22,074 nucleotides of DNA from a virus (IMGVR_UViG_643348545_000012), one strand, 5' to 3'. Counted from the stretch's first letter, positions 2,120 through 21,317 are shown. Translations and numbers: made by a program. Notes: a model not told the origin generated them from the letters alone.

Positions 2120-2836
2120 TTAATTAGGTTCAAAAATTTTAAATTCATTCCACGGCAATTTTTTCCAGTTACTGGATGGATCTTTCAACCATGCAGTGAC
2201 TTCCTTTAAATCACGGTTCGCAGTGGCGACGGGGGTATCGTATATCATTAACCATTTTTGTCGGGCGCGAACATAAGCACTGGCATAATCTTCCCATGAA
2301 GCGAAACAATCTTGTGCTCTTTGAGCATTCAGTAATAACACTATCCAGGCCTGGTTTTCATCGCACCAGCCTAAACCGGCGATGCAACGAGTTAAAAAAG
2401 CAGTGCGCATACAGTCAAACGCCAGCCCATCCAGAACCTGGCCTTGTGCTGCCAGTTGTTCGTAAAAATCATGTGGAGAATTACCAAGCCCTGTAGCCCA
2501 GCGCTGTAATATAACGCCAATTTGTTGACGGAAATCTTCGTTGCTTTGGTAAGTTTCTGTTCCTAGCTCTTGTTTAACCTGTAGTGCAAGTTGTTGACGC
2601 TTATCATCAGTCAACTTTAAATCTAACGTGAAGCCATTTACTGACAGTCCATTACGACGAGCAACTATATCACCAATTGCTAATGCCCACTTACGTCTCT
2701 TTGTTGCTCGTCTTTTGTCCTTGATTAGATCCTTTTCTTTTTCTTTAGCAATAAAAGCATCGATTTGTGGTTTGTTTTTTTTGTATCTATAGATAAAAAT
2801 AAATATTGCGACCAGGAGAACAATGATAAGACTCAT
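2120..2836 (-). CDS. DUF1266-like (YbeU/YbeR-like) protein with N-terminal transmembrane helix
   Basis: 238 aa ORF; N-terminus MSLIIVLLVAIFIFIY is hydrophobic; C-terminal half with W/D-rich pattern ending ...WKKLPWNEF resembles my recollection of the DUF1266 family; start codon overlaps the stop of the upstream gene by 1 nt (TAATG), suggesting translational coupling. Confidence 0.6.
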   Translation of the reverse strand: MSLIIVLLVAIFIFIYRYKKNKPQIDAFIAKEKEKDLIKDKRRATKRRKWALAIGDIVARRNGLSVNGFTLDLKLTDDKRQQLALQVKQELGTETYQSNEDFRQQIGVILQRWATGLGNSPHDFYEQLAAQGQVLDGLAFDCMRTAFLTRCIAGLGWCDENQAWIVLLLNAQRAQDCFASWEDYASAYVRARQKWLMIYDTPVATANRDLKEVTAWLKDPSSNWKKLPWNEFKIFEPN

Positions 2837-4050
2837 TATTTTTCAACCTCTGACAGGGGTAAGTAATGAGATGTCTGTAATGTCAAACTCTCTATCTCAA
2901 AGGAAATGTTGCTGATATTTTGACCTGCAAATTGCGGATGCCACTCAGCGCCAGGGAATAACATTTCCGCAGAAGTAGCAACTATAGGGTCAATAGCATT
3001 AAGATAATGTAACTTATCAGGTGCGCTGTGTAACAGTAACCACTGCAACTCCACTGAAGGATTTGTAAAATGTTCTAATAAATGAAAGTTATTATGTAGT
3101 ACGCTTAGTAAAAAACTGGTTTCGTATACTTCCGTTACATATTTCCACCCCTGATATTCAGGTGTATTTTCATAAACAATACCCATACCTTCACAATCAC
3201 TATGTCGAACTGCTTGTGGTGATAATAGTTGCAAAAGAGACAAAACATCGTCCGCATATTTTTTAACTGGATGACGATTTTGCTTACCTTTTATTTGATC
3301 AATTTCAAGTGAATCACCAACAACATTGAGAGCAATAGTAACATGAGGAATATTATTATTATCACGCAAACTGAATAACCGTAATTTATGTTGCTCAATT
3401 TGATTTGCATAATACTCACCATAACCACCGGTAAGATTTTTTCGATCATCAAACTGGCCTACGCAATGTTGCATATGCCATGATTCATAAGCCATTTCAC
3501 GACGAAGGTTCGAATGACTGGCATCAAACTCAACAATTTTTCCGTCTGGCACATCAAGTATTGACTTTACAGTATTTTGTTCACTCGGCTGCCACCCTTT
3601 CTCGCGTCGTTGAAGCATCTTTTCATGCTCTTCTTCACGCATTCTGAACGCAACGTAGCAGGTTATGCGCTGTAGTTTTGATTCCAGACGGGTACCACAT
3701 TTCCTGGAAAGAAATTCCACCAACTCCCGTTCTTTGGTTAATATTTGTTGATGATCGGTTTCGATATAATAAAGTGTCGCAGTTGATACTGAGGCAGTAT
3801 TAAACTTCGATACCAGCCATTCCGGGATTACATCATCATTTTTATTAAACAGTGAATATTCTGCAAGCGAGTTAATTTGTTGCACCATTGGAAAGTCACT
3901 AATTAGCCATCGATAAAAATGGTTGAGTAACCATTTTTGGATGGTCTCATTATCCTGGCGAAACAGACTTCTTTGCAAAATTGCTGTTTTTACTTCCGGG
4001 GCATTAATTACATCCCTTGCATTATAATTCTGGTGAATATTTCCAGTCAT
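2836..4050 (-). CDS. Hypothetical protein (404 aa), first gene of AT-rich three-gene operon
   Basis: Long ORF in track, AT-rich codon usage, divergent from yegQ; no family recognised by eye. Confidence 0.6.
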   Translation of the reverse strand: MTGNIHQNYNARDVINAPEVKTAILQRSLFRQDNETIQKWLLNHFYRWLISDFPMVQQINSLAEYSLFNKNDDVIPEWLVSKFNTASVSTATLYYIETDHQQILTKERELVEFLSRKCGTRLESKLQRITCYVAFRMREEEHEKMLQRREKGWQPSEQNTVKSILDVPDGKIVEFDASHSNLRREMAYESWHMQHCVGQFDDRKNLTGGYGEYYANQIEQHKLRLFSLRDNNNIPHVTIALNVVGDSLEIDQIKGKQNRHPVKKYADDVLSLLQLLSPQAVRHSDCEGMGIVYENTPEYQGWKYVTEVYETSFLLSVLHNNFHLLEHFTNPSVELQWLLLHSAPDKLHYLNAIDPIVATSAEMLFPGAEWHPQFAGQNISNISFEIESLTLQTSHYLPLSEVEK

Positions 4051-4537: not shown

Positions 4538-5899
4538 ATGTTTAAACCGGAACTCCTTTCCCCGGCGGGAACGCTGAAAAATATGCGTTACGCTTTCGCT
4601 TATGGCGCAGATGCTGTTTATGCGGGCCAGCCGCGTTACTCCCTGCGTGTACGCAACAACGAATTCAACCACGAAAATCTTCAGCTCGGCATCAATGAAG
4701 CCCACGCGCTGGGGAAAAAGTTTTATGTCGTGGTCAACATTGCACCGCACAACGCCAAGCTGAAAACCTTTATCCGTGACCTGAAACCGGTGGTGGAAAT
4801 GGGGCCGGATGCGCTGATTATGTCCGATCCAGGGCTGATTATGCTGGTGCGTGAGCACTTCCCGGAAATGCCAATCCACCTCTCGGTACAGGCTAACGCC
4901 GTAAACTGGGCGACGGTGAAATTCTGGCAGCAAATGGGTCTGACCCGCGTGATCCTCTCTCGCGAACTGTCACTGGAAGAGATTGAAGAGATCCGCAATC
5001 AGGTGCCGGATATGGAGATCGAAATCTTCGTTCACGGCGCGCTGTGCATGGCCTACTCCGGTCGCTGCCTGCTCTCTGGCTATATCAACAAGCGCGACCC
5101 GAACCAGGGCACCTGCACCAACGCCTGCCGCTGGGAGTATAACGTCCAGGAAGGGAAAGAAGATGACGTCGGCAACATCGTACACAAGTACGAGCCGATT
5201 CCGGTGCAAAATGTTGAGCCGACGCTGGGTATCGGCGCGCCAACCGACAAAGTGTTTATGATCGAAGAAGCCCAGCGTCCGGGCGAGTATATGACCGCGT
5301 TTGAAGATGAGCACGGCACTTACATCATGAACTCGAAAGATCTGCGCGCCATCGCCCATGTTGAACGCCTGACCAAAATGGGCGTGCATTCGCTGAAAAT
5401 CGAAGGCCGTACCAAATCTTTCTACTATTGCGCACGCACCGCGCAGGTTTACCGTAAAGCTATCGATGACGCCGCTGCGGGCAAACCGTTCGATACCAGC
5501 CTGCTGGAAACTCTGGAAGGTCTGGCGCATCGTGGCTATACCGAAGGTTTCCTGCGTCGTCATACCCACGACGATTATCAGAACTACGAATACGGTTATT
5601 CGGTTTCTGACCGTCAGCAGTTTGTTGGTGAGTTTACCGGTGAGCGCAAGGGGGAGCTCGCGGCGGTAGCGGTGAAAAATAAATTCTCCGTTGGCGACAG
5701 CCTTGAGCTGATGACGCCGCAAGGCAACATTAACTTTACCCTTGAGCATATGGAAAACGCCAAAGGTGAAGCGATGCCGGTCGCACCAGGCGATGGTTAT
5801 ACTGTGTGGCTCCCGGTGCCGCAGGATCTTGAGCTAAATTACGCGCTGCTGATGCGTAATTTCTCCGGGGAAACCACGCGTAACCCCCACGGTAAGTGA
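4538..5899 (+). CDS. yegQ: U32-family peptidase-like protein YegQ/TrhP (tRNA hydroxylation-associated)
   Basis: 453 aa ORF beginning MFKPELLSPAGTLKNMRYAFAYGADAVYAGQ with the EIFVHGALCMAYSGRC U32 signature; GAGAG RBS just upstream of the ATG; matches recalled E. coli YegQ in length and sequence. Confidence 0.93.
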   Translation: MFKPELLSPAGTLKNMRYAFAYGADAVYAGQPRYSLRVRNNEFNHENLQLGINEAHALGKKFYVVVNIAPHNAKLKTFIRDLKPVVEMGPDALIMSDPGLIMLVREHFPEMPIHLSVQANAVNWATVKFWQQMGLTRVILSRELSLEEIEEIRNQVPDMEIEIFVHGALCMAYSGRCLLSGYINKRDPNQGTCTNACRWEYNVQEGKEDDVGNIVHKYEPIPVQNVEPTLGIGAPTDKVFMIEEAQRPGEYMTAFEDEHGTYIMNSKDLRAIAHVERLTKMGVHSLKIEGRTKSFYYCARTAQVYRKAIDDAAAGKPFDTSLLETLEGLAHRGYTEGFLRRHTHDDYQNYEYGYSVSDRQQFVGEFTGERKGELAAVAVKNKFSVGDSLELMTPQGNINFTLEHMENAKGEAMPVAPGDGYTVWLPVPQDLELNYALLMRNFSGETTRNPHGK

Positions 5900-6171: not shown

Positions 6172-6390
6172 TTACATCCACATAATTTGCTGCCCTGACG
6201 GCAACGGGTGCGGCCTTACGGCGTGGACTTCTCCCGGCTTCACGATGTATCTCTGTACCGACTCATAAGTGATGAACGTGGCGCTGCAATTCACGTTCTG
6301 GCACTGGTGATAACGCTCTTTTGTCGTGTCAGTGATATAGCGGCTTGTACGCGCATGTGCGGCATGCTGGCATAAAGGACAATGAAACAT
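6172..6390 (-). CDS. ogr: Ogr-type zinc-finger late-gene transcriptional activator (72 aa)
   Basis: Internal Met of the 99-aa ORF gives MFHCPLCQHAAHARTSRYITDTTKERYHQCQNVNCSATF..., a C-x2-C...C-x4-C zinc finger matching P2 Ogr / E. coli OgrK. Confidence 0.9.
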   Translation of the reverse strand: MFHCPLCQHAAHARTSRYITDTTKERYHQCQNVNCSATFITYESVQRYIVKPGEVHAVRPHPLPSGQQIMWM

Positions 6391-6470
6391 CGCGAGCACC
6401 TCTTCCGGTTTTGTTAATGGTGCCATTTTATTTAATTTATCCTTATAAAACAAACAGATAAAACAAAACA

Positions 6471-7634
6471 TTAATCATCATCTTCTGTTTCGTACTCCAC
6501 ATCAGAAAGCCTGACCTCAAGCTCTAAGGACGTCGTGAAGCCGCTATTATTCAGAAAATGTGTCACCTTAGTGATTGTCCAGTCCTGCTCGTCTATGACG
6601 CGCTTAAAGCCTGACACTCTGACCGGTGTTTCCGTGTAAATATCAGCACGACCAGTGGCAAGGCTGATGGAGAACTCCGCAACGCCCCGTTGCAGTTTAT
6701 CCCACTTCGCCTGAGCGGCGCGCATGGCCTGCGCTTTCGTGGCATATACCGTGGTCAGGGCAAAAACGTTGTCAGCTTCACCGGCCATGTATTCACCTTC
6801 GCGCGCTTCCGGTACTTTTGGCGCTTTCTTCTGCGTGACTGGTTTCGCTTTCGGGTGCTCCAGTGCGCGCAGGTGTTTCTCTTTCTTTTTGCGTTTCAGT
6901 TTTACCTTCTGCTTTTGCGGCTTCGGGTCTTTGGTGTGTAACCACTTTGCCGTTACGCCGGTATAGGCTCCACGGTCAGCAATCGCAAAATGATGGCGGT
7001 CGCCGTCGCTGCGGGTTATGGTGACCTGCGGGATTTTTTTACCGCTGGCCGTCACCCCCTGCCCCGCTTTGAGAAACAACAGTTTTCCCATTTTTACCGA
7101 CACCTCACCGCCGTTGCGTTCTGCAAGACGGGTCAGGAATTTCGCATCAGACTCCTGCGACTGGTCGATGTGCGGGATTTTAATTCCGGCCAGTGACGGC
7201 GCGACACTGGCTTCCAGCCTGTTACGGGAGGCTATCGCCTCAACAATCGCACCGAGCGTGGTGTCATGCCATGACCCTTCACGGCGGGAATTGAGCGTCC
7301 CGCGAAAATCTGCACTCCGGGCGCGGATGGTGACCACATCCGGTGCGCCCCGGTGTTCAACCTCATCAACGGTAAATTTCCCTTTGCATACCAGGGCAAA
7401 ACCTTTCCAGCCGATATACACCTTCAGAACAGCACCACGAACCGGCAGTTCGACCTGCCCGTCGGCATCGTTCAGTTCAATATCAAGCTGGTCAGCCTCA
7501 AAGCCCCGGTTATCCGTCAGGGTCATGCTCATCAGACGGTCGCTGATATTGCCGGTAATATCCCTGCTGTCGAGCATCAGCATGTAATCCGGCGTCAGCG
7601 TACTGCCTGCATCAAATGTCAGCGCATCCAGCAT
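6471..7634 (-). CDS. D: P2-like tail protein D (late control gene D product)
   Basis: 387 aa ORF, same length and gene order as P2 gpD (immediately upstream of ogr). Confidence 0.9.
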   Translation of the reverse strand: MLDALTFDAGSTLTPDYMLMLDSRDITGNISDRLMSMTLTDNRGFEADQLDIELNDADGQVELPVRGAVLKVYIGWKGFALVCKGKFTVDEVEHRGAPDVVTIRARSADFRGTLNSRREGSWHDTTLGAIVEAIASRNRLEASVAPSLAGIKIPHIDQSQESDAKFLTRLAERNGGEVSVKMGKLLFLKAGQGVTASGKKIPQVTITRSDGDRHHFAIADRGAYTGVTAKWLHTKDPKPQKQKVKLKRKKKEKHLRALEHPKAKPVTQKKAPKVPEAREGEYMAGEADNVFALTTVYATKAQAMRAAQAKWDKLQRGVAEFSISLATGRADIYTETPVRVSGFKRVIDEQDWTITKVTHFLNNSGFTTSLELEVRLSDVEYETEDDD

Positions 7635-12952: not shown

Positions 12953-12975
12953 ATCAAATCTGACAGTCTGCTTTG
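12953..12975. repeat. Site A: atcaaatctgacagtctgctttg, copy 1 of a ~22-bp putative recombination site
   Basis: Shares the exact 11-mer ctgacagtctg plus flanks with sites at 15262-15284 (direct, 21/23) and 15384-15405 (inverted). Confidence 0.6.
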
Positions 12976-13103
12976 AGCGAAAAGTGGACATTAGAGTTAC
13001 AAAAGCAAGTTTAAATCATCCAAAATATTACAATGTCCTTATCTATCTGATATCGTTATAATAAAAAGCTCCTGAATATAATCGATAGTAGGTGGTTATT
13101 TCC

Positions 13104-13481
13104 ATGAAATCAATTTTAGAGGTTTTTACTCAAGGAAATACTAAAGAAAAACTGGCTGTTATCGCCGATCTCACAACCATTGCGGGAATATCGATTGCAA
13201 CTATTATTGCTGGTTTGTTAACCCTAGTTGCAAAAACAGATAAACTAGATGTTGGAAATCTGTTTGGAGTTGTCATAATATCTCTGCTCGGATTGGCTGG
13301 TGTTTGCTGTTTTGTGGCCTTATTTATTTGGGTTATAACCCAAATGTCTAAACCATGGGGAACACCTCGGGGGGTTCAGCCCTTAGTTAAGTGTGCTATT
13401 TCCCTTATCTTTATCTGTATGTTTTTGCTGGCTGTCTTTACATTTTATGAGTTTATTTCTTCGATGAGCATACGCTATTGA
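13104..13481 (+). CDS. Small integral membrane protein (about 125 aa, 3 predicted TM helices), cargo gene
   Basis: ORF in track (13092..13481, likely ATG at 13104 with aggtgg RBS); three long hydrophobic stretches; AT-rich. Confidence 0.55.
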   Translation: MKSILEVFTQGNTKEKLAVIADLTTIAGISIATIIAGLLTLVAKTDKLDVGNLFGVVIISLLGLAGVCCFVALFIWVITQMSKPWGTPRGVQPLVKCAISLIFICMFLLAVFTFYEFISSMSIRY

Positions 13482-13503
13482 ATATAAAATCAGCCCCCAT
13501 AAC

Positions 13504-14088
13504 TTAAAAGAGACCTTCTATATCGACTTCAATGCCCAAATAACGGACTGTGCTTTCCAGTTTCTTATGGCCCAACAGAAGTTGGATCACCCGGAGACTC
13601 TTGGTTTTCTTGTAGATTAAGTAAGGTTTTGTTCTTCTCATGGAATGTGTGCTGTACAGCGAATCTTCGAGACCAAGCTTTTCTACCCACCCATGAAAAA
13701 TTCGGTTGTATTGCCGGGTTGATATATGGTGGTTAGTTCCGACCCGAGAGCGGAACAGGAAGCCTTTACTATGCCAGTTGCCGAGCTTTATCAATGCAGT
13801 AACCGCTTCCCTTGTCCCTTTGGTTATCTCAAATTGGACAGGGCTGCCGGTTTTCTGTTGCAACACCGTTGCTCTGCTTGAGACAGAACTGCCATATGCA
13901 GCATCTGATACTTTGAGTTTGACCAAATCACAGCCCCGTAGCTTAGTGTCCAAAGCCATGTTGAACAGAGCTAGATCGCGTGTTTTACCTTCCAACTCAA
14001 GTCTAATCCGGATCCCCCAGATATGAGATATCTGAAGTGGCCTTTTTTGACCGATGGTACGGTCTTTATTCCACGGTGACGTTTTCAT
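13504..14088 (-). CDS. Short tyrosine recombinase (FimB/FimE-sized, about 194 aa)
   Basis: C-terminus HSMRRT...LLGHKKLESTVRYLGIEVD carries the box II H-x-x-R, second His and nucleophile Tyr; earlier TKLRGCDL supplies a candidate box I Arg. The track ORF starts at 14190, but the ATG at 14088 has an AGGAG RBS 8 nt upstream and gives a protein the size of FimB/FimE. Confidence 0.75.
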   Translation of the reverse strand: MKTSPWNKDRTIGQKRPLQISHIWGIRIRLELEGKTRDLALFNMALDTKLRGCDLVKLKVSDAAYGSSVSSRATVLQQKTGSPVQFEITKGTREAVTALIKLGNWHSKGFLFRSRVGTNHHISTRQYNRIFHGWVEKLGLEDSLYSTHSMRRTKPYLIYKKTKSLRVIQLLLGHKKLESTVRYLGIEVDIEGLF

Positions 14089-14194
14089 ATTCAAATCTCC
14101 TGCAATGTGGGAGATTTGAGTATGGTTGTCTCTCAAGAGCGAAAATAAGTCAACTATCACTAGTTGTTGCGCATGTACGTATTCTGTCAATTAA

Positions 14195-15037
14195 TTATTG
14201 ACAATCATCAATTCTGGAATGATCAAAATCATCATATCGAATTATAGTCTGGTTGACTGTATCTATTGTTGGTGTCATTTCTGTTATAATATCCTGATAA
14301 CCTAAAGAGTTAAATACATTTACTAAGGCCTCACACCGAAGGGCCGTAGCAATTACAAAATTATAAATTGCCAGCCGTTTATTTTCTTGTTTAACTGCAA
14401 GAATGAATTCGATAGCAGTATTTTCATCACTTTGGATTGCATTATATAGAGATACTATATTTACCATATCATCAGAGAATGTATGTATTGAATCACAAAG
14501 GGGAACGTAATGGGCATGATAGTGTGTTTCCCAGCCAATTAATTCAAAAAGTTTTCTGGTTCCTGGATATTCAGGTGTATTTGGCCACAATCTATTAAAT
14601 AGATCAGTTAGTTCTTTTCCCATGCGAATCCTTTCATTTGCTGCTGGATTAGTCATTCCTTTGGATTTTAAACACTCCAGCCACCGTTTTCCATTACTAT
14701 GAACTAATTTCTTACTAGCCTTGAGTAATGCTTGTGCATTTTCGCCATCATCTATTGCTATATAAAATTGATTGGCAGCCTGTTCTATTATAACCCTAGC
14801 TAATACTTCCGATGCTGAAAAGGCTCCTATATTCAAAGAAGAGATAGCCTGATTACTAAGTTCATTCAGTACATTAAAGTACTGTAAGACCATCAATTTT
14901 TGTTCCACACCCTTTAGGTTGTCTATTTTATTTTTATGCTCCTCAAATTTTGCATGGATATATTTATTTATCGCGGCTATTTTTTTTACATCTTCGTCAA
15001 GATCAAACGGGCAACGTCCAAACAATTCTTTTTTCAT
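14195..15037 (-). CDS. Hypothetical cytoplasmic protein (280 aa), cargo gene upstream of the recombinase
   Basis: ORF with AGGAG RBS 7 nt upstream of ATG; AT-rich; no recognisable motif (no RT YxDD, no clear nuclease or HEPN motif). Confidence 0.6.
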   Translation of the reverse strand: MKKELFGRCPFDLDEDVKKIAAINKYIHAKFEEHKNKIDNLKGVEQKLMVLQYFNVLNELSNQAISSLNIGAFSASEVLARVIIEQAANQFYIAIDDGENAQALLKASKKLVHSNGKRWLECLKSKGMTNPAANERIRMGKELTDLFNRLWPNTPEYPGTRKLFELIGWETHYHAHYVPLCDSIHTFSDDMVNIVSLYNAIQSDENTAIEFILAVKQENKRLAIYNFVIATALRCEALVNVFNSLGYQDIITEMTPTIDTVNQTIIRYDDFDHSRIDDCQ

Positions 15038-15075
15038 ATATTTCTCCTGTTGTACAAGCTTCCATAAGTTGGCAG

Positions 15076-15110
15076 ATTATACACTGAAGATTACCTATAA
15101 ATAGCTGTGC
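15076..15110 (-). promoter_or_regulatory. Candidate sigma70 promoter for the 280-aa cargo gene (perfect TATAAT on the minus strand at 15081-15076; weak -35)
   Basis: Reverse complement of attata at 15076-15081, about 38 nt upstream of the ATG at 15037; -35 element poor, so speculative. Confidence 0.3.
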
Positions 15111-15261
15111 GGGATAGCAGATCAGTGCAAGAAGTACAACCAAGTGAATGTGCGTATTCAGATACCTGGCCTAACGTTCGCGATAGCCGTCCCCTGCACG
15201 AAGCCATATATTAGATGTATTAGCTCAGACCTTATCTGACAGGTTGAGTAGGTAGAATCTA

Positions 15262-15284
15262 ATCAAAGCTGACAGTCTGGTTTG
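15262..15284. repeat. Site B: atcaaagctgacagtctggtttg, direct copy of site A
   Basis: 21 of 23 positions identical to site A; read directly. Confidence 0.6.
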
Positions 15285-15383
15285 GACTGTGAGTTCAACC
15301 GATGGATGCAACACACAGCGATCTACGGACATTACTAGCATAGCTGTGTATTAATCATCGGGAAGCAGGTCAGTCCGCTCCTA

Positions 15384-15405
15384 GCACAGAGCAGACTGTC
15401 AGATT
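15384..15405. repeat. Site C: inverted copy of the site (reverse complement aatctgacagtctgctctgtgc); also part of a 10-bp-stem hairpin tagcacagag...ctctgtgcta (15382-15423)
   Basis: Reverse complement matches site A at 20 of 22 positions; lies 47 bp downstream of the G stop codon. Confidence 0.6.
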
Positions 15406-15457: not shown

Positions 15458-15985
15458 TTATTGCGGCATTTCCGGCCATTCAGGATTTGCAGGATCCACA
15501 CGGCTGACCAGAACACTGTAGCGTTCCCATGCTTCCAGTCGGCTACGCTCCTCATCTGTTGCCATATTCAGTCTGACAGAGCGTTCCAGTGGCTGAATGA
15601 TAGTTTCAGCTTCGGAAAGCAAAGCTGACTTCTGTAATTCCGCCAGTTGCAGCTGTTCGTCTGCCGTATAAATCCGCTTAATCACGGCACCATCCTTAAA
15701 CATCCATTTACCTGAGTCATCAGCACGTCGGTTGGCGGTAATATCAGGAACCTCGACAACGCTAAAACCTTCAGGGTTGAGCGTTGAAGCATCTCTGGTG
15801 ATGCCGACAATTATATTATTCTCATCGTAAACAATCTTTATCGTGTCTTCCTGAAAATTACTTACTTCCTCATACCAGTTTTTTCCCTCTTCGGACCATA
15901 ACCAGATAACATCAAAATTTTTTGTCAGTTGATATTGGGCAACAGTTTTTGGATTACCCGCAGTAATATTTTTTAAATGCTGCAT
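15458..15985 (-). CDS. G: Tail fiber assembly chaperone (P2 gpG-like)
   Basis: 175 aa ORF immediately downstream of the tail fiber gene; same length as P2 gpG; Tfa-like sequence. Confidence 0.88.
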
Positions 15986-15988
15986 AAA

Positions 15989-18094
15989 TTACACCTGTGC
16001 GACGTTATACCATGTGCCATTGATGTATTTTTGTATTGGTCTGAATACTGCGGGGTCATCACCATCGACTTCACCGACAATACCAAGCCCGGTAATTACG
16101 TGCCCTGCTTTCTCATACATCACCCCTTTCTGCATGGTCTGGACAACACGTGTGCCAAGTCTGACATCTCTCACATAGCGGGAATCAAAGTTACCGTAAT
16201 CCGAGGGATTAACACGCCCCGTAATATTTATGGTTTTATTACTTTGAACGCTTCCGGAGACAAAGCGCATAACATGGACGCTATTAGCATAAACATCCAG
16301 ATTACCATCACCATTTTGTTTAAAGCCCGTGTCATTATCACCCAAAACAATCGAATTACCGCCAAGAGCACTGGATGTTCCTATACCCAGAGCACCATTC
16401 AATTGACCACCAGATAATGATAACGCCCCAACATCAGCAGCAGTCGGTTTAATGTACGAACTGTAAATTACATATACAGTTCCATCTGTCAGGCCTGTTG
16501 GTTTATTCGCTGTATAAGTTGGTGATGTATGAATCGTTACGCTGGCGTTACTGGTATAATCCCACTGAATATTAACACCTGTGGCGTAATTACCTATTTC
16601 AACATAAACATCATAGGTATCACCGGATGTATTCACCCATGCAAAATTAGTAAATCCAACCGATGTCCGTCGCCATAACGCACCAGTAAGACCTTTTGGA
16701 TTTCCATTTCCCGCACGAAGAACAAGTTCAGATATACCAGCCTGCATAGGGGAGTTAACATTATATCCGGCACCACCAATCAGGCTTATGTAAACCACGG
16801 AACTGGCCTGGGGCATGGTTACAGTTGCCAGCCTGAACCATCCTGTACCACCACTAAAAGACATGGTTGTTGAATTTGTTGCTCCAATATTGCGCAGGAA
16901 TAATCTTTTATCAGGAATATCCGCACCGTTCTGATCTTTCTGAAGACGTTTTTCAGCATTGTCATAGGCAGACTTCACCGCTTTTGGTGTTGCGGCCAGT
17001 GTTTCAGAATCACTGTTGGTGGCGCTACTGAGCTGAACAAGCCCTTTTCGCGCTGTGGTGGCATCCTGTGCAGTGTATTTCCCGTTAGCAAGGTCATACG
17101 CGACCTTTACCGCCTTTGGCGTTGCCGCAAGCGTTTCAGAATCACTGTTGGTGGCGCTACTGAGCTGGACAAGGCCTTTTCTCGCTGTGGTGGCGTCCTG
17201 TGCAGTGTATTTCCCGTTAGCAAGGTCATACGCGACCTTTACCGCCTTTGGCGTTGCGGCCAGCGTTTCAGAATCGCTGTTGGTGGCGCTACTGAGCTGA
17301 ACAAGACCTTTTCGCGCTGTGGTGGCGTCCTGTGCAGTGTATTTCCCGTTAGCAAGGTCATACGCGGCCTTTACCGCTTTTGGTGTTGCGGCGAGCGTTT
17401 CAGACGTGCTGTTGGTGGCACTACTGAGTTGGACAAGACCTTTTCGCGCTGTGGTGGCATCCTGCGCAGTATATTTCCCGTTAGCAAGGTCATACGCGGC
17501 CTTTACCGCTTTCGGCGTTGCAGCCAGTGTTTCAGACGCGCTGTTGGTTGCACTGCTTAACTGAGTAAAACCTTTTGCGGTCAGCGAGGCGTCCGGGTGA
17601 CGTCGTGACTGTTCATGCTCTGCAATTTTGTCATCAACGTAATCCTGCGTTGCCATCACCGTTGTGGTGTCAATGGTCAGCTCCACTGAGGCCACACTGC
17701 TGACGATGATGACCATGCGGCAGGTCTGCGAACGCCCTGAGCCTTCGGCAAGAGCGGGTTTATAACTTTCAGCCATGTTCGCCACGGCAATTAGCGTTCC
17801 CGCATCATCGTACAGGCCAAGCTCACGCATCCAGAAACCGCCCACCTCCGGCGGAATAACCAGCTCTGCGATAATATAATTACTGTTTCGTTTGTCCAGG
17901 GTGATTTTGTTCAGCGCATGTCGCCAGACTTCATGGATAAGCCCGGTCTGTCCGGCATCCGGGACAGGCAATTTACCACCGCCATCCCCGACGGCCATCG
18001 TGGTAATGTTGACCTTCCGCCCTCCCGGTGCGGTTGCCGCTGCCAGCTTTGCTGCACCGGCAGTGGTGATAACGGTTTTGAATTTTGTGCTCAT
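15989..18094 (-). CDS. H: Tail fiber protein (P2 gpH-like) with internal 44-aa tandem repeats
   Basis: 701 aa ORF; N-terminus MSTKFKTVITTAGAAKLAAATAPGG resembles the conserved fiber N-terminal baseplate-attachment region; C-terminal half divergent. Confidence 0.92.
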   Translation of the reverse strand: MSTKFKTVITTAGAAKLAAATAPGGRKVNITTMAVGDGGGKLPVPDAGQTGLIHEVWRHALNKITLDKRNSNYIIAELVIPPEVGGFWMRELGLYDDAGTLIAVANMAESYKPALAEGSGRSQTCRMVIIVSSVASVELTIDTTTVMATQDYVDDKIAEHEQSRRHPDASLTAKGFTQLSSATNSASETLAATPKAVKAAYDLANGKYTAQDATTARKGLVQLSSATNSTSETLAATPKAVKAAYDLANGKYTAQDATTARKGLVQLSSATNSDSETLAATPKAVKVAYDLANGKYTAQDATTARKGLVQLSSATNSDSETLAATPKAVKVAYDLANGKYTAQDATTARKGLVQLSSATNSDSETLAATPKAVKSAYDNAEKRLQKDQNGADIPDKRLFLRNIGATNSTTMSFSGGTGWFRLATVTMPQASSVVYISLIGGAGYNVNSPMQAGISELVLRAGNGNPKGLTGALWRRTSVGFTNFAWVNTSGDTYDVYVEIGNYATGVNIQWDYTSNASVTIHTSPTYTANKPTGLTDGTVYVIYSSYIKPTAADVGALSLSGGQLNGALGIGTSSALGGNSIVLGDNDTGFKQNGDGNLDVYANSVHVMRFVSGSVQSNKTINITGRVNPSDYGNFDSRYVRDVRLGTRVVQTMQKGVMYEKAGHVITGLGIVGEVDGDDPAVFRPIQKYINGTWYNVAQV
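16961..17572. repeat. Tandem repeat, 132-bp unit, about 4.6 copies, encoding the 44-aa motif SETLAATPKAVKxAYDLANGKYTAQDATTARKGLVQLSSATNSx inside the tail fiber gene
   Basis: Near-identical DNA units begin at about 16978, 17110, 17242, 17374, 17506; also visible as duplicated antisense ORFs 17055-17300 and 17319-17564 in the track. Confidence 0.9.
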
Positions 18095-18104
18095 TATTCC
18101 TCAC

Positions 18105-18635
18105 TTATCCGGGGTAAACCGTAATTACATCGCCGTCGTAAGCCACACCACCGGCGAACAGGTAGCCGGGAATGTCCCGGGTAATGTTCAGGCCAATAAG
18201 GTGACGGCTTGCAGGTTTGGCATCAGCAATCAGCCGTTCCATTTCCTGATACATTGCCTCTGTGATACCGCTTTCCAGTACACCAATATCAAGCCGGAAG
18301 GTGCCGGGCGGGTCACTGTTTTCCCACCACTCCGTCACGTTGATGAGATAGCCGAGCGGCTCCACCACACGCCGGATTGCACCTATCGTGCCCTTATGAC
18401 AGTGGATGAAATAGGCATCGCGGATAACGGCGCGTTTTGTCGCTTCCGGCCACTTTTCATCCCATCTGTCGACCGAAAACGCCCACGCCAGCCACGGCAG
18501 CAGATTTGCCGGACAGGTATTCGGGTTCCACAGATCACGAATACTGACCGGCGTTTTTTCAATTTCCGCACAGGCTTTTGCGGCGGCAACTTCAAGCGGT
18601 GATGAGCCGGTCGGCAGCAGTCGCGAATCACTCAT
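18105..18635 (-). CDS. I: Baseplate assembly protein I (P2 gpI-like)
   Basis: 176 aa ORF, position between J and H. Confidence 0.9.
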   Translation of the reverse strand: MSDSRLLPTGSSPLEVAAAKACAEIEKTPVSIRDLWNPNTCPANLLPWLAWAFSVDRWDEKWPEATKRAVIRDAYFIHCHKGTIGAIRRVVEPLGYLINVTEWWENSDPPGTFRLDIGVLESGITEAMYQEMERLIADAKPASRHLIGLNITRDIPGYLFAGGVAYDGDVITVYPG

Positions 18636-19536
18636 CCGAGCCTCCGGTCACGACGTGGTATTCGGTACAGAAAGACGCCTGCGTACTGTTGAGCACGATA
18701 TCGACCAGTGGTGCAGCCAGTTCGACACGCTGCACGCCTTCCACATGCAAAGCGGCATAAATGGCAGACAGACGGATGTCGCGCCCCAGCCGGTGCTGTG
18801 CCGTGATGTACGCTTCCAGTTTTTTCACGGCAGCAGCGCGGATGGGTTCGCTTTCGGGACCAGGGTAAAGGTAAAGCGTGGCGTTTATCTGGTATTCAAC
18901 GATGGCGGCAGACTGCACGGTCACGCGGTCGGCCACCGGCCTGACGTCCTCGCCATTAAGGGCGTTACGCACCACCGCCAGCAGGTCTTCGGATGCGACA
19001 CCGTTATTTTCACGTGACAGCACAGAGATGGTGACGCAGGCCGGAGACGGACTGGTGACAGAGATATCCGCGACACGCCCGTCGGCACTGCGACCATGAT
19101 ACTGATAAGCCCCCACCGACCCGGCGACGCTTAAACCTTCAAACGCCTGCTGAATACGCAGACGATAATCCGTGTCAGATTCCATCACGGCCGGTGTCGG
19201 CGGGAGGGTCGAATCATCTGCCGGGGTGATAGTCAGACGCGTGGTGTTGTAATTGGCACCAATCACATCAAGGTCATTACCGGCGGCACAGGCCAGCATT
19301 ACCGCCCGTGCGGCCTCATTCACACGCTGACGCCAGATAAGCTCACGATAAGCATTTTCCTCCAGCAGTTTGACGAGAGGCTCGGATTCCAGCATCAGGG
19401 CACGGGCGACCGCCTCCTGCTGGTCTTCCGGGTAAAGGGAAATCAGTGTCGCCTTGCGTTCAGCAAGAATGGTTTCAAAGTCCAGCTCCTCGACCACATC
19501 CGGTGCGGGTAGCTGGTTCAGGTCGATAATCGGCAT
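18628..19536 (-). CDS. J: Baseplate assembly protein J (P2 gpJ-like)
   Basis: 302 aa ORF, overlaps I start by 8 nt, gene order W-J-I. Confidence 0.92.
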   Translation of the reverse strand: MPIIDLNQLPAPDVVEELDFETILAERKATLISLYPEDQQEAVARALMLESEPLVKLLEENAYRELIWRQRVNEAARAVMLACAAGNDLDVIGANYNTTRLTITPADDSTLPPTPAVMESDTDYRLRIQQAFEGLSVAGSVGAYQYHGRSADGRVADISVTSPSPACVTISVLSRENNGVASEDLLAVVRNALNGEDVRPVADRVTVQSAAIVEYQINATLYLYPGPESEPIRAAAVKKLEAYITAQHRLGRDIRLSAIYAALHVEGVQRVELAAPLVDIVLNSTQASFCTEYHVVTGGSDE

Positions 19537-20603: not shown

Positions 20604-21317
20604 ATGGTCAGCTATAATGTGACTAATGTGTGGGGGCTAATCGTTTTTTTCCTTTGTAGCTTTGCAGTATTAGCATTTTTTAGCTTTGGTAAAAGTAACC
20701 TTATGAGGCTTATTGCACATTATTTCAATTTTGGATATTCAGACAAAAAATTAAAAAGACTTGACCGCGAGTGGCGCGACATTCAACTATTTAAAATAAT
20801 TAATGGAATCAATGTATCAGGCATTGAAAATGTGAGAATGATACAGCAGGGACTGATTGATGGAAAACTAAAAACATCGTATTTTTCCCTTACTCGCATC
20901 TGGGGTGACATAACAAAACCACCACACATAATTAAAACAATAATTGTAATTCTGGCCAGTATTTTTTACATTCTCCTCGCATGTTACATACACAACGAAC
21001 AATCCGTTATAGTAAGGGATGCCATAGGCATACCATATAAAAACATGATGTACTATGTTTATAGTGACAAAGTTCTTTTATCCTTCAAAAATAAAGCAGT
21101 TGAATTTAATAAAACTTATAGCCTTGCCGATTGCAAGAGACTGCAAAACGTATTTATAAAAGACACACTTCCTGAGATCGCCTGCAATAAGCTCTTACAG
21201 CTAAACGAGGAGGACTCCGAATGGTTAAGCCAGGAGATTAAAGATAATAACAGTCACAAAAAAGCATTATTAATACTATCCCTGAAGCCGAGAGTGTCCA
21301 CACAGTGTCCACAGTAG
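20604..21317 (+). CDS. Hypothetical AT-rich membrane protein (237 aa, two hydrophobic segments), divergent from V; prophage cargo
   Basis: ORF with AGGAG RBS 6 nt upstream of ATG; very AT-rich relative to adjacent tail genes; TM-like segments VWGLIVFFLCSFAVLAFFSF and IIKTIIVILASIFYILLACYI. Confidence 0.55.
   Translation: MVSYNVTNVWGLIVFFLCSFAVLAFFSFGKSNLMRLIAHYFNFGYSDKKLKRLDREWRDIQLFKIINGINVSGIENVRMIQQGLIDGKLKTSYFSLTRIWGDITKPPHIIKTIIVILASIFYILLACYIHNEQSVIVRDAIGIPYKNMMYYVYSDKVLLSFKNKAVEFNKTYSLADCKRLQNVFIKDTLPEIACNKLLQLNEEDSEWLSQEIKDNNSHKKALLILSLKPRVSTQCPQ

Follow-up and report, generated by a model that had tools for sequence, protein, structure and literature searches.

A 44-residue repeat array in tail fibre gene H of a P2-like Escherichia coli prophage and its copy-number alleles

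Known fibre repeats and the array in gene H

The Phage_fiber_2 repeat (PF03406; IPR005068), also referred to as Pf2, was first noted in the Stf protein of phage lambda and in prophage side tail fibres, and little is known about its structure and function (PMC3368898). Here, we describe a tandem array of such repeats in gene H, the tail fibre gene of a P2-like prophage of Escherichia coli that is contained in a stretch of viral DNA of 22,074 nt (IMGVR_UViG_643348545_000012). This whole stretch is called the window; all coordinates are given in its numbering, and both gene H and the array lie on the minus strand. Our work supports the idea, to which we assign a probability of about 80%, that the units form a PF03406 shaft array, that their copies vary by out-of-register recombination, and that the array is also the joint to which different distal modules are attached: Alleles with fewer or more units are present in prophages that are otherwise nearly identical to that of the window, and the units at which these alleles differ are chimeric.

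Several described fibres can be compared with this locus. The tail fibre gpH of phage P2 (NP_046775, 669 amino acids [aa]) is a homotrimeric virion fibre that uses the core of the lipopolysaccharide (LPS) as receptor and needs gpG for its assembly. The two genes share the J-I-H-G position, the N-terminal 173 residues are near-identical, and the first unit, which starts at residue 174 in both arrays, is the same; altogether, the first 217 residues are shared with few changes. However, P2 has two units, one full and one partial, as compared to five in the window, and its distal part is different. The fibre protein S of phage Mu (gp49; PDB 5YVQ and 9KI1, S/S' chimera 8JU3) shares with the window protein one copy of the repeat, the continuation '...DNA..RL.KD.NGADIP.K', and a homologous C-terminal tip (E=8e-35). 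Unit 5 of the window and about 30 following residues align to the single repeat of Mu S (residues 105-175), and the C-terminal 76 residues of the window protein align to the C-terminus of Mu S (PDB 5YVQ, E=1.9e-15). In contrast, Mu S has only this single unit and another N-terminal domain. Moreover, the Mu fibre gene has its distal half on the invertible G segment; no such segment was seen at gene H of the window. Mu S forms a trimeric fibre that is anchored to the baseplate wedge (PMC11915804). The same unit is also present in lambda Stf and in StfR-type E. coli prophage fibres, and close sequence relatives have as many as 11-12 units, but these are siphovirus-type fibres with another N-terminus, and their super-repeat of 44+56 aa contains an 'HTHPW' segment. 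Two of these relatives, P0121 (778 aa) and P0122 (846 aa), have a 100-residue super-repeat composed of a 44-aa unit and a 56-aa unit that ends in 'APSSHTHPWN'; its copies are almost identical, and this is a much more extreme case than the array of the window. Finally, the collagen-like fibres of enterohaemorrhagic E. coli (EHEC) prophages have Col and PCoil shaft domains that vary by whole repeats, in multiples of 3 or 7 residues (PMC3368898). The principle of a modular shaft of variable length is the same, but the collagen triplets and coiled-coil heptads are far shorter units.

The open reading frame (ORF) at 15989-18094 encodes gpH of a P2-like (Peduovirus) E. coli prophage, the orthologue of P2 gene H. 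This identification is based on the genes I and J directly upstream and the Caudo_TAP gene directly downstream, as in P2, and the protein has the PF12571 domain (196.8 bits, E=2.4e-58, profile positions 1-150 of 150, aa 1-151) and homology to P2 H. In megablast comparisons, gene H of P2, of Wphi and of numerous Peduovirus phages was matched over the N-terminus and the array; the identity to P2 H is 90.7% over 51% of the gene, covering these two parts. A RefSeq tail fiber protein with exactly the same sequence, WP_000104692.1 (100% identity), is present in two complete E. coli genomes including that of strain 98208, and 220 contigs are recorded as carrying the identical protein. The PF03406 profile has five matches in the protein (321.9 bits, E=2.4e-98; the curated gathering threshold of the family is 22 bits), and every 44-aa unit matches profile positions 1-41 of 42, as does the best stretch, without essential difference from the family. 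The spacing is a point of difference: The units of the window are strictly tandem at 44 aa, whereas many family members have spacings of 56 or 75-78 aa or irregular ones. Near the C-terminus, there is a weak match to a gp37-type trimerisation domain in Pfam. The initial annotation had placed the repeats in a tail fiber gene and noted a resemblance of the unit to the repeat class of side tail fibers; the PF12571 domain, the position between Tail_P2_I/Baseplate_J and the Caudo_TAP chaperone gene, and the PF03406 matches bear out both points.

The array at 16961-17576 is the only tandem array that Tandem Repeats Finder detected in the whole window (period 132, 4.7 copies, 90% matches, 0% indels, score 929), and an independent repeat search returned the same 132-bp spacing with the copies in register. 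It lies in frame in the 701-aa reading frame and comprises four full units of 44 aa and a partial fifth unit that diverges after its first 29 codons; downstream of this unit, the reading frame continues straight into the distal part of the fibre. Thus, the position, period, copy number and in-frame 44-aa layout given in the initial annotation are correct as judged from Tandem Repeats Finder and the translation of the ORF. The features of gene H are as follows (L118 to L123 are related loci with four or six units that are compared below):

15989..18094, minus strand: gene H, P2-type tail fibre protein, 701 aa and stop; PF12571, five PF03406 matches, weak gp37_trimer match
17642..18094, minus strand: N-terminal fibre domain, aa 1-151; PF12571 Phage_tail_fib
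17444..17575, minus strand: repeat unit 1, aa 174-217; KGFTQLSSATNSASETLAATPKAVKAAYDLANGKYTAQDATTAR
17312..17443, minus strand: repeat unit 2, aa 218-261; fused to unit 3 in L120/L121 and to unit 1 in L122/L123
17180..17311, minus strand: repeat unit 3, aa 262-305; 94.7% identity to unit 4
17048..17179, minus strand: repeat unit 4, aa 306-349; contributed to the additional chimeric unit of both six-copy loci, L118 and L119
16961..17047, minus strand: repeat unit 5, partial, aa 350-378, 29 codons; counted as the fifth PF03406 match
15989..16960, minus strand: distal fibre part, aa 379-701 and stop; variable, presumed receptor-binding

By analogy with the fibres of P2 and R-pyocins, the N-terminal domain presumably fixes the fibre to the baseplate, and the distal part would bind the receptor. 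Two antisense ORFs of 81 aa with GTG start codons (17055-17300 and 17319-17564, plus strand) are copies of each other by virtue of the repeat. We do not regard them as genes since the substitutions track the codon phase of the minus-strand H frame.

Alleles with different numbers of units

Among the closest 120 proteins from a large protein collection, the protein lengths change in steps of 44 residues: 657, 701 and 745 aa in one C-terminal type, corresponding to four, five and six units, and 665 and 753 aa in a second type. If only those proteins are considered that match the window after the array (at least 97% identity in this part, 92% for a few five-unit proteins), 26 have four units, 62 have five and two have six. 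The four-unit proteins fall into two distinct architectures, one without the "T" unit and the other without the "D-V" unit. The DNA was compared for six loci with four or six units. All of them belong to the same prophage type as the window and carry the same cargo genes, and the 519 nt before and the 927 nt after the array (1446 nt of gene H) are 100% identical to the window. In four of the six loci, 3 kb on either side (6 kb in total) differ at just 2-12 sites. The alleles and their junctions, given in positions of the unit, are the following:

L120/L121: four units; unit 2 fused to unit 3; crossover at positions 117-128, identical run of 52 bp
L122/L123: four units; unit 1 fused to unit 2; crossover at positions 105-109, identical run of 5 bp
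L118: six units; extra unit with the head of unit 5 and the tail of unit 4; crossover at positions 12-34, identical run of 35 bp
L119: six units; extra unit with the head of unit 4 and the tail of unit 3; crossover at positions 12-34, identical run of 23 bp

These alleles represent four or more independent events within what is essentially a single prophage genotype. Three of the four crossover intervals are located within runs of 52, 35 and 23 bp that are identical between the units. The chimeric units indicate unequal homologous recombination or replication slippage, and either of the two may have been the pathway. Different copy numbers are also found in complete genomes: Among the best 52 matches in complete E. 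coli genomes, the spans correspond to five units in 42, to four in nine, and to two in one. Four units are present in RM9245, JNE23-011, JNE112863 and in eight others that have another tip. The two-unit allele of gene H is that of PCN033 (L125, 3001-4709), in which unit 2 is fused to unit 5 and 396 bp are deleted. The initial annotation had proposed that the copy number could vary by slipped-strand or homologous recombination, and that an identical number across all related prophages would make the array a fixed structural feature. The copy number is indeed variable, with four-, five- and six-unit alleles at C-termini that are at least 97% identical and with chimeric changed units, and it is not the same in all related prophages.

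How could these alleles have arisen, and what might the array do? We suggest that the five PF03406 units constitute the proximal shaft of the trimeric gpH, between the N-terminal domain and the variable distal part. Purifying selection holds the protein sequence of the units, and their synonymous sites have diverged, with partial homogenisation of the 3' half. The residual identical runs of 23-62 bp would still permit the units to pair out of register, and mispairing in RecA-dependent recombination or replication slippage would lead to the loss or gain of whole 132-bp units with the reading frame kept. In this way, otherwise identical prophages would have come to carry alleles of two, four, five or six units, five being the commonest. 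Each unit presumably lengthens the shaft by a fixed amount, and the conserved array would serve as the joint for attaching different distal modules. A modular spacer in the shaft is the most likely role of the array, and it is plausible that the copy number alters the length of the fibre; in this way, it might affect adsorption or host range. P2 fibre chimeras of differing lengths are functional (PMC9594776), which is consistent with a tolerance of length changes. We found nothing specific on copy-number polymorphism of the PF03406 repeat or of P2 H in the literature, although the classic papers on P2 and Mu fibres were probably outside of the coverage of our search.

Several observations weigh against this reading. 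First, the crossover of L122/L123 maps to an identical interval of 5 bp rather than to a long run. Second, the two-unit allele of PCN033 has lost 1 nt at the junction, resulting in a frameshift, and is annotated as a pseudogene; either genuine prophage decay or a mistake in sequencing may account for this. Third, the six-unit allele was present in none of the complete genomes searched, and the six-unit alleles thus rest on draft assemblies. Fourth, when we summed up the contigs in the class of the window by hand, roughly 565 had five units, 100 had four and four had six; in this biased sample, about 84% keep five units, and most C-terminal classes have a single copy number throughout. Although polymorphic, the array is thus stable for the most part, and it is possible that the variants are neutral or mildly deleterious. 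Finally, the idea of a fixed shaft length per unit rests on analogy. A single-sequence AlphaFold2 model of the full protein made without alignment was uninformative (mean predicted local distance difference test score 35, predicted template modelling score 0.22), the solved structures with sequence similarity are those of the Mu tail fibre protein S alone (5YVQ, 9KI1, 8JU3), and no description of the fold of the PF03406 repeat segment was found in the fibre literature searched.

Distal modules, divergence of the units and other explanations

The array was compared in 116 P2-like H genes, 80 from viral contigs and 36 from species genomes, that cover Escherichia, Citrobacter, Enterobacter, Salmonella, Buttiauxella and other genera. 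The N-terminal domain is conserved in all of them (74-99% identity), and in 116 of 116 genes the array starts at residue 173 or 174 and follows the strict 44-residue period. The number of units varies between one and five, mostly two or four in the viral contigs and one to three in the other genera. A wider search with a two-unit query against 1.84 billion representative proteins yielded 2505 proteins at E<=0.001, among which 44 residues is the commonest spacing, some close relatives of the unit have the 44+56-residue super-repeat, and arrays reach 11-14 units. In view of these long arrays, five units are nothing unusual for the wider family; for P2-type fibres, they are at the high end. By their C-terminal part, the 113 complete P2-like H proteins can be divided into 42 classes, all of which are attached directly after the array. 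Moreover, megablast alignments with other phages break off at the array or within it; the query positions are 926, 968, 1038, 1105 and 1117 (aa 394-330). Since the classes join after the array and the DNA homology stops there, the array appears to double as the mosaic joint of gene H.

These data are also the basis of the most serious alternative, that the array is mainly a recombination linker for swaps of distal modules between unrelated phages, with the copy number as a functionless by-product. The 42 C-terminal classes and the end of the DNA homology fit this idea, as do the last unit and its continuation that are common to Mu protein S, the 1-14 places per E. coli genome that are matched by the H query and correspond to other prophage fibre genes, and the copy number that mostly co-segregates with the C-terminal class. 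However, the idea leaves the strong purifying selection on every unit unexplained, and a single unit, as present in some relatives, would be enough for a joint, so that there is no explanation for four to five units with identical protein sequence. It is also compatible with a role as shaft spacer rather than exclusive of it, and we consider a mere linker possible, but would not put it first. A trade-off between the number of units and the length of the C-terminal part, with fewer units for longer parts as expected under a constant overall length of the fibre, was not significant in the 42 classes (Spearman rho -0.26, p=0.10).

The divergence between the units bears on a second alternative, a recent expansion whose copies stay near-identical through ongoing homogenisation (concerted evolution). 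Pairs of full units have different nucleotides at 7-21 of 132 positions (84-95% identity), whereas 0-4 residues (0-4 nonsynonymous codons per pair) differ in the protein. Eighteen of the 26 variable columns among units 1-4 are third codon positions of the H frame. The synonymous divergence (dS, Nei-Gojobori) of the full-unit pairs is 0.25-0.66 and reaches 0.5-1.2 in comparison to unit 5, the nonsynonymous divergence (dN) is 0-0.07, and dN/dS between units is about 0-0.13. With this synonymous divergence, the units are not recent copies; the high dS together with the low dN indicates that the amino-acid identity of the units is mainly due to purifying selection and that the array is old. Moreover, unit 1 was the best match for 25 of 28 unit 1 copies of P2-like arrays in other genera, and it is therefore a positional orthologue. 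The two halves of the unit behave differently: The 5' half contains 21 variable columns as compared to five of 66 in the 3' half (Fisher p=0.0008), and the proportion of synonymous differences (pS) between the units of the window is 0.52 in the 5' half (codons 1-22) and 0.13 in the 3' half (codons 23-44). The 5' halves are thus as diverged as orthologous units from other genera, for which pS is 0.57 in the 5' half and 0.61 in the 3' half. As these cross-genus orthologues show no asymmetry, the 3' half looks partly homogenised in this lineage. The asymmetry is also seen in L085 (Enterobacter), and it is absent in L088, L098 and L107.

These numbers divide the evidence on the recent-expansion idea. 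Units 3 and 4 are 94.7% identical with seven differences, all of them synonymous, the 3' halves are similar in spite of the lack of constraint on the orthologues in this part, the patchy sharing of variants in unit 1 of RM9245 and unit 2 of L121 resembles short conversion tracts, and the extra units of the six-copy alleles are truly recent. On the other hand, the synonymous divergence between the units, the 5' halves that are on par with cross-genus orthologues, and the positional orthology of unit 1 speak against a recent origin of the array, and purifying selection explains the identity of the proteins. We thus regard this explanation as rather unlikely. Accordingly, the description of the repeats as near-perfect with few substitutions is true for the protein but not for the DNA, and of the two processes that the initial annotation had seen implied by the high identity, recent expansion is contradicted by the dS values, whereas homogenisation is retained for the 3' half.

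It is tempting to speculate that shaft length is a quickly retunable adaptive trait: Recombination would yield fibres of varied reach, selection would fit the copy number to the local host surface, and the homogenisation of the 3' half would be kept as a recombination substrate. If true, the selected match would be to the thickness of the O-antigen or capsule or to the distance to the LPS core; we consider this improbable. It is very improbable that the copy-number variants are artefacts of the short-read assembly of a tandem repeat. The six-unit alleles are confined to draft or metagenome assemblies, and several four-unit loci come from MEGAHIT or SPAdes contigs. However, the units share exact in-register runs of at most 62 bp, shorter than the k-mers of 119-141 that are named in the contig records, and the same variant proteins are present in 10, 24 or more, and three independent contigs; these two observations make misassembly unlikely. 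Moreover, there are complete genomes with four units and, in PCN033, with two, and each variant differs by an exact multiple of 132 bp and has clean junctions in its chimeric units. The idea of a programmed hypervariable device, i.e. a contingency locus, the target of a diversity-generating retroelement (DGR), or a part of an invertible fibre segment, is hardly conceivable: The array sits in a host-range gene and, 1.3 kb downstream of G, a gene for a small tyrosine recombinase is found within a segment bracketed by 33-nt inverted repeats, but about 84% of the contigs of the class keep five units, and the recombinase island is clear of H and G and has the same orientation in eight related loci.

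All three forms of such a device were rejected. As 132 bp correspond to 44 codons, every change is in frame and a change in copy number would not act as an on/off switch, in disagreement with a contingency (phase-variable) locus. For a DGR target, there was no reverse transcriptase in the ORFs scanned, the repeats are arranged in tandem, and most of the differences concern third positions (18 of 26), as judged by codon position only.

The repeat family, the gene and the exact protein are already in the databases, a change in copy number by unequal recombination is expected of such an array, and no new mechanism is revealed; the importance of the locus is thus modest. The natural alleles indicate that the proximal shaft of a P2-type fibre tolerates two to six units in frame. 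For the engineering of P2 or tailocin fibres, the array marks a site for changing the length and for grafting distal modules, and it is a locus where prophage typing and short-read assemblies may conflict. It also provides a clean small case of unequal recombination with mapped crossovers, and of purifying selection that mimics a recent duplication at the protein level.

Gene neighbourhood and cargo of the prophage

Pfam matches identify GPW_gp25, Baseplate_J and Tail_P2_I upstream of H and the Caudo_TAP gene downstream. Beyond gene G, there are the sheath, tube and tape measure genes, gpD and ogr, and this order is that of the P2 late genes (J-I-H-G). The neighbours of gene H and the genes of the cargo island discussed below are:

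18628-19536, minus strand: baseplate gene J; PF04865 Baseplate_J
18105-18635, minus strand: baseplate gene I; PF09684 Tail_P2_I
15458..15985, minus strand: gene G, tail fibre assembly protein (chaperone); PF02413 Caudo_TAP, E=6.7e-34, in the position of P2 G
14195-15037, minus strand: DUF5677 protein, in the Z/fun hotspot
13504-14190, minus strand: short FimB/E-sized tyrosine recombinase, in the Z/fun hotspot
13092-13481, plus strand: 129-aa hypothetical protein, in the Z/fun hotspot

The P2 Z/fun cargo hotspot between G and the sheath gene FI spans 12957-15405. The island, which has the same orientation in eight related loci, is flanked by an imperfect inverted repeat of 33 nt (12957-12989 and 15373-15405, 82% complementary). 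PADLOC and NCBIfam scans did not assign its genes to any defence system; the island might represent defence cargo of an uncharacterised kind, a small cassette that is mobile, or a segment that can invert. In RM9245 (L124, 952-2178), a Shedu nuclease is present in the same hotspot, beside a closely related H. In strain 98208 (L126, 16848-19150), ISEc12, an insertion sequence of the IS21 family, is located between G and the DUF5677 gene; the window does not have this element.

The prophage ends with ogr (6172-6471, minus strand), which is adjoined by a host gene for a peptidase of family U32 (4538-5899, plus strand) that we take to be yegQ from its size and family. To the left of this gene, the minus strand encodes three proteins of unknown function: a PcfJ-like protein (2836-4050), a DUF1266 protein (2120-2836) and a DUF4034 protein (1-2148) that reaches the edge of the window. 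On the other side of gene H, an ORF at 20604-21317 (plus strand; 237 aa, 261 aa in the RefSeq entry WP_000255496) lies on the opposite strand between the baseplate gene V and the tail-completion genes further upstream. Pfam, NCBIfam and PADLOC gave no match for this ORF, which is kept at the same position in all related prophages that were fetched.

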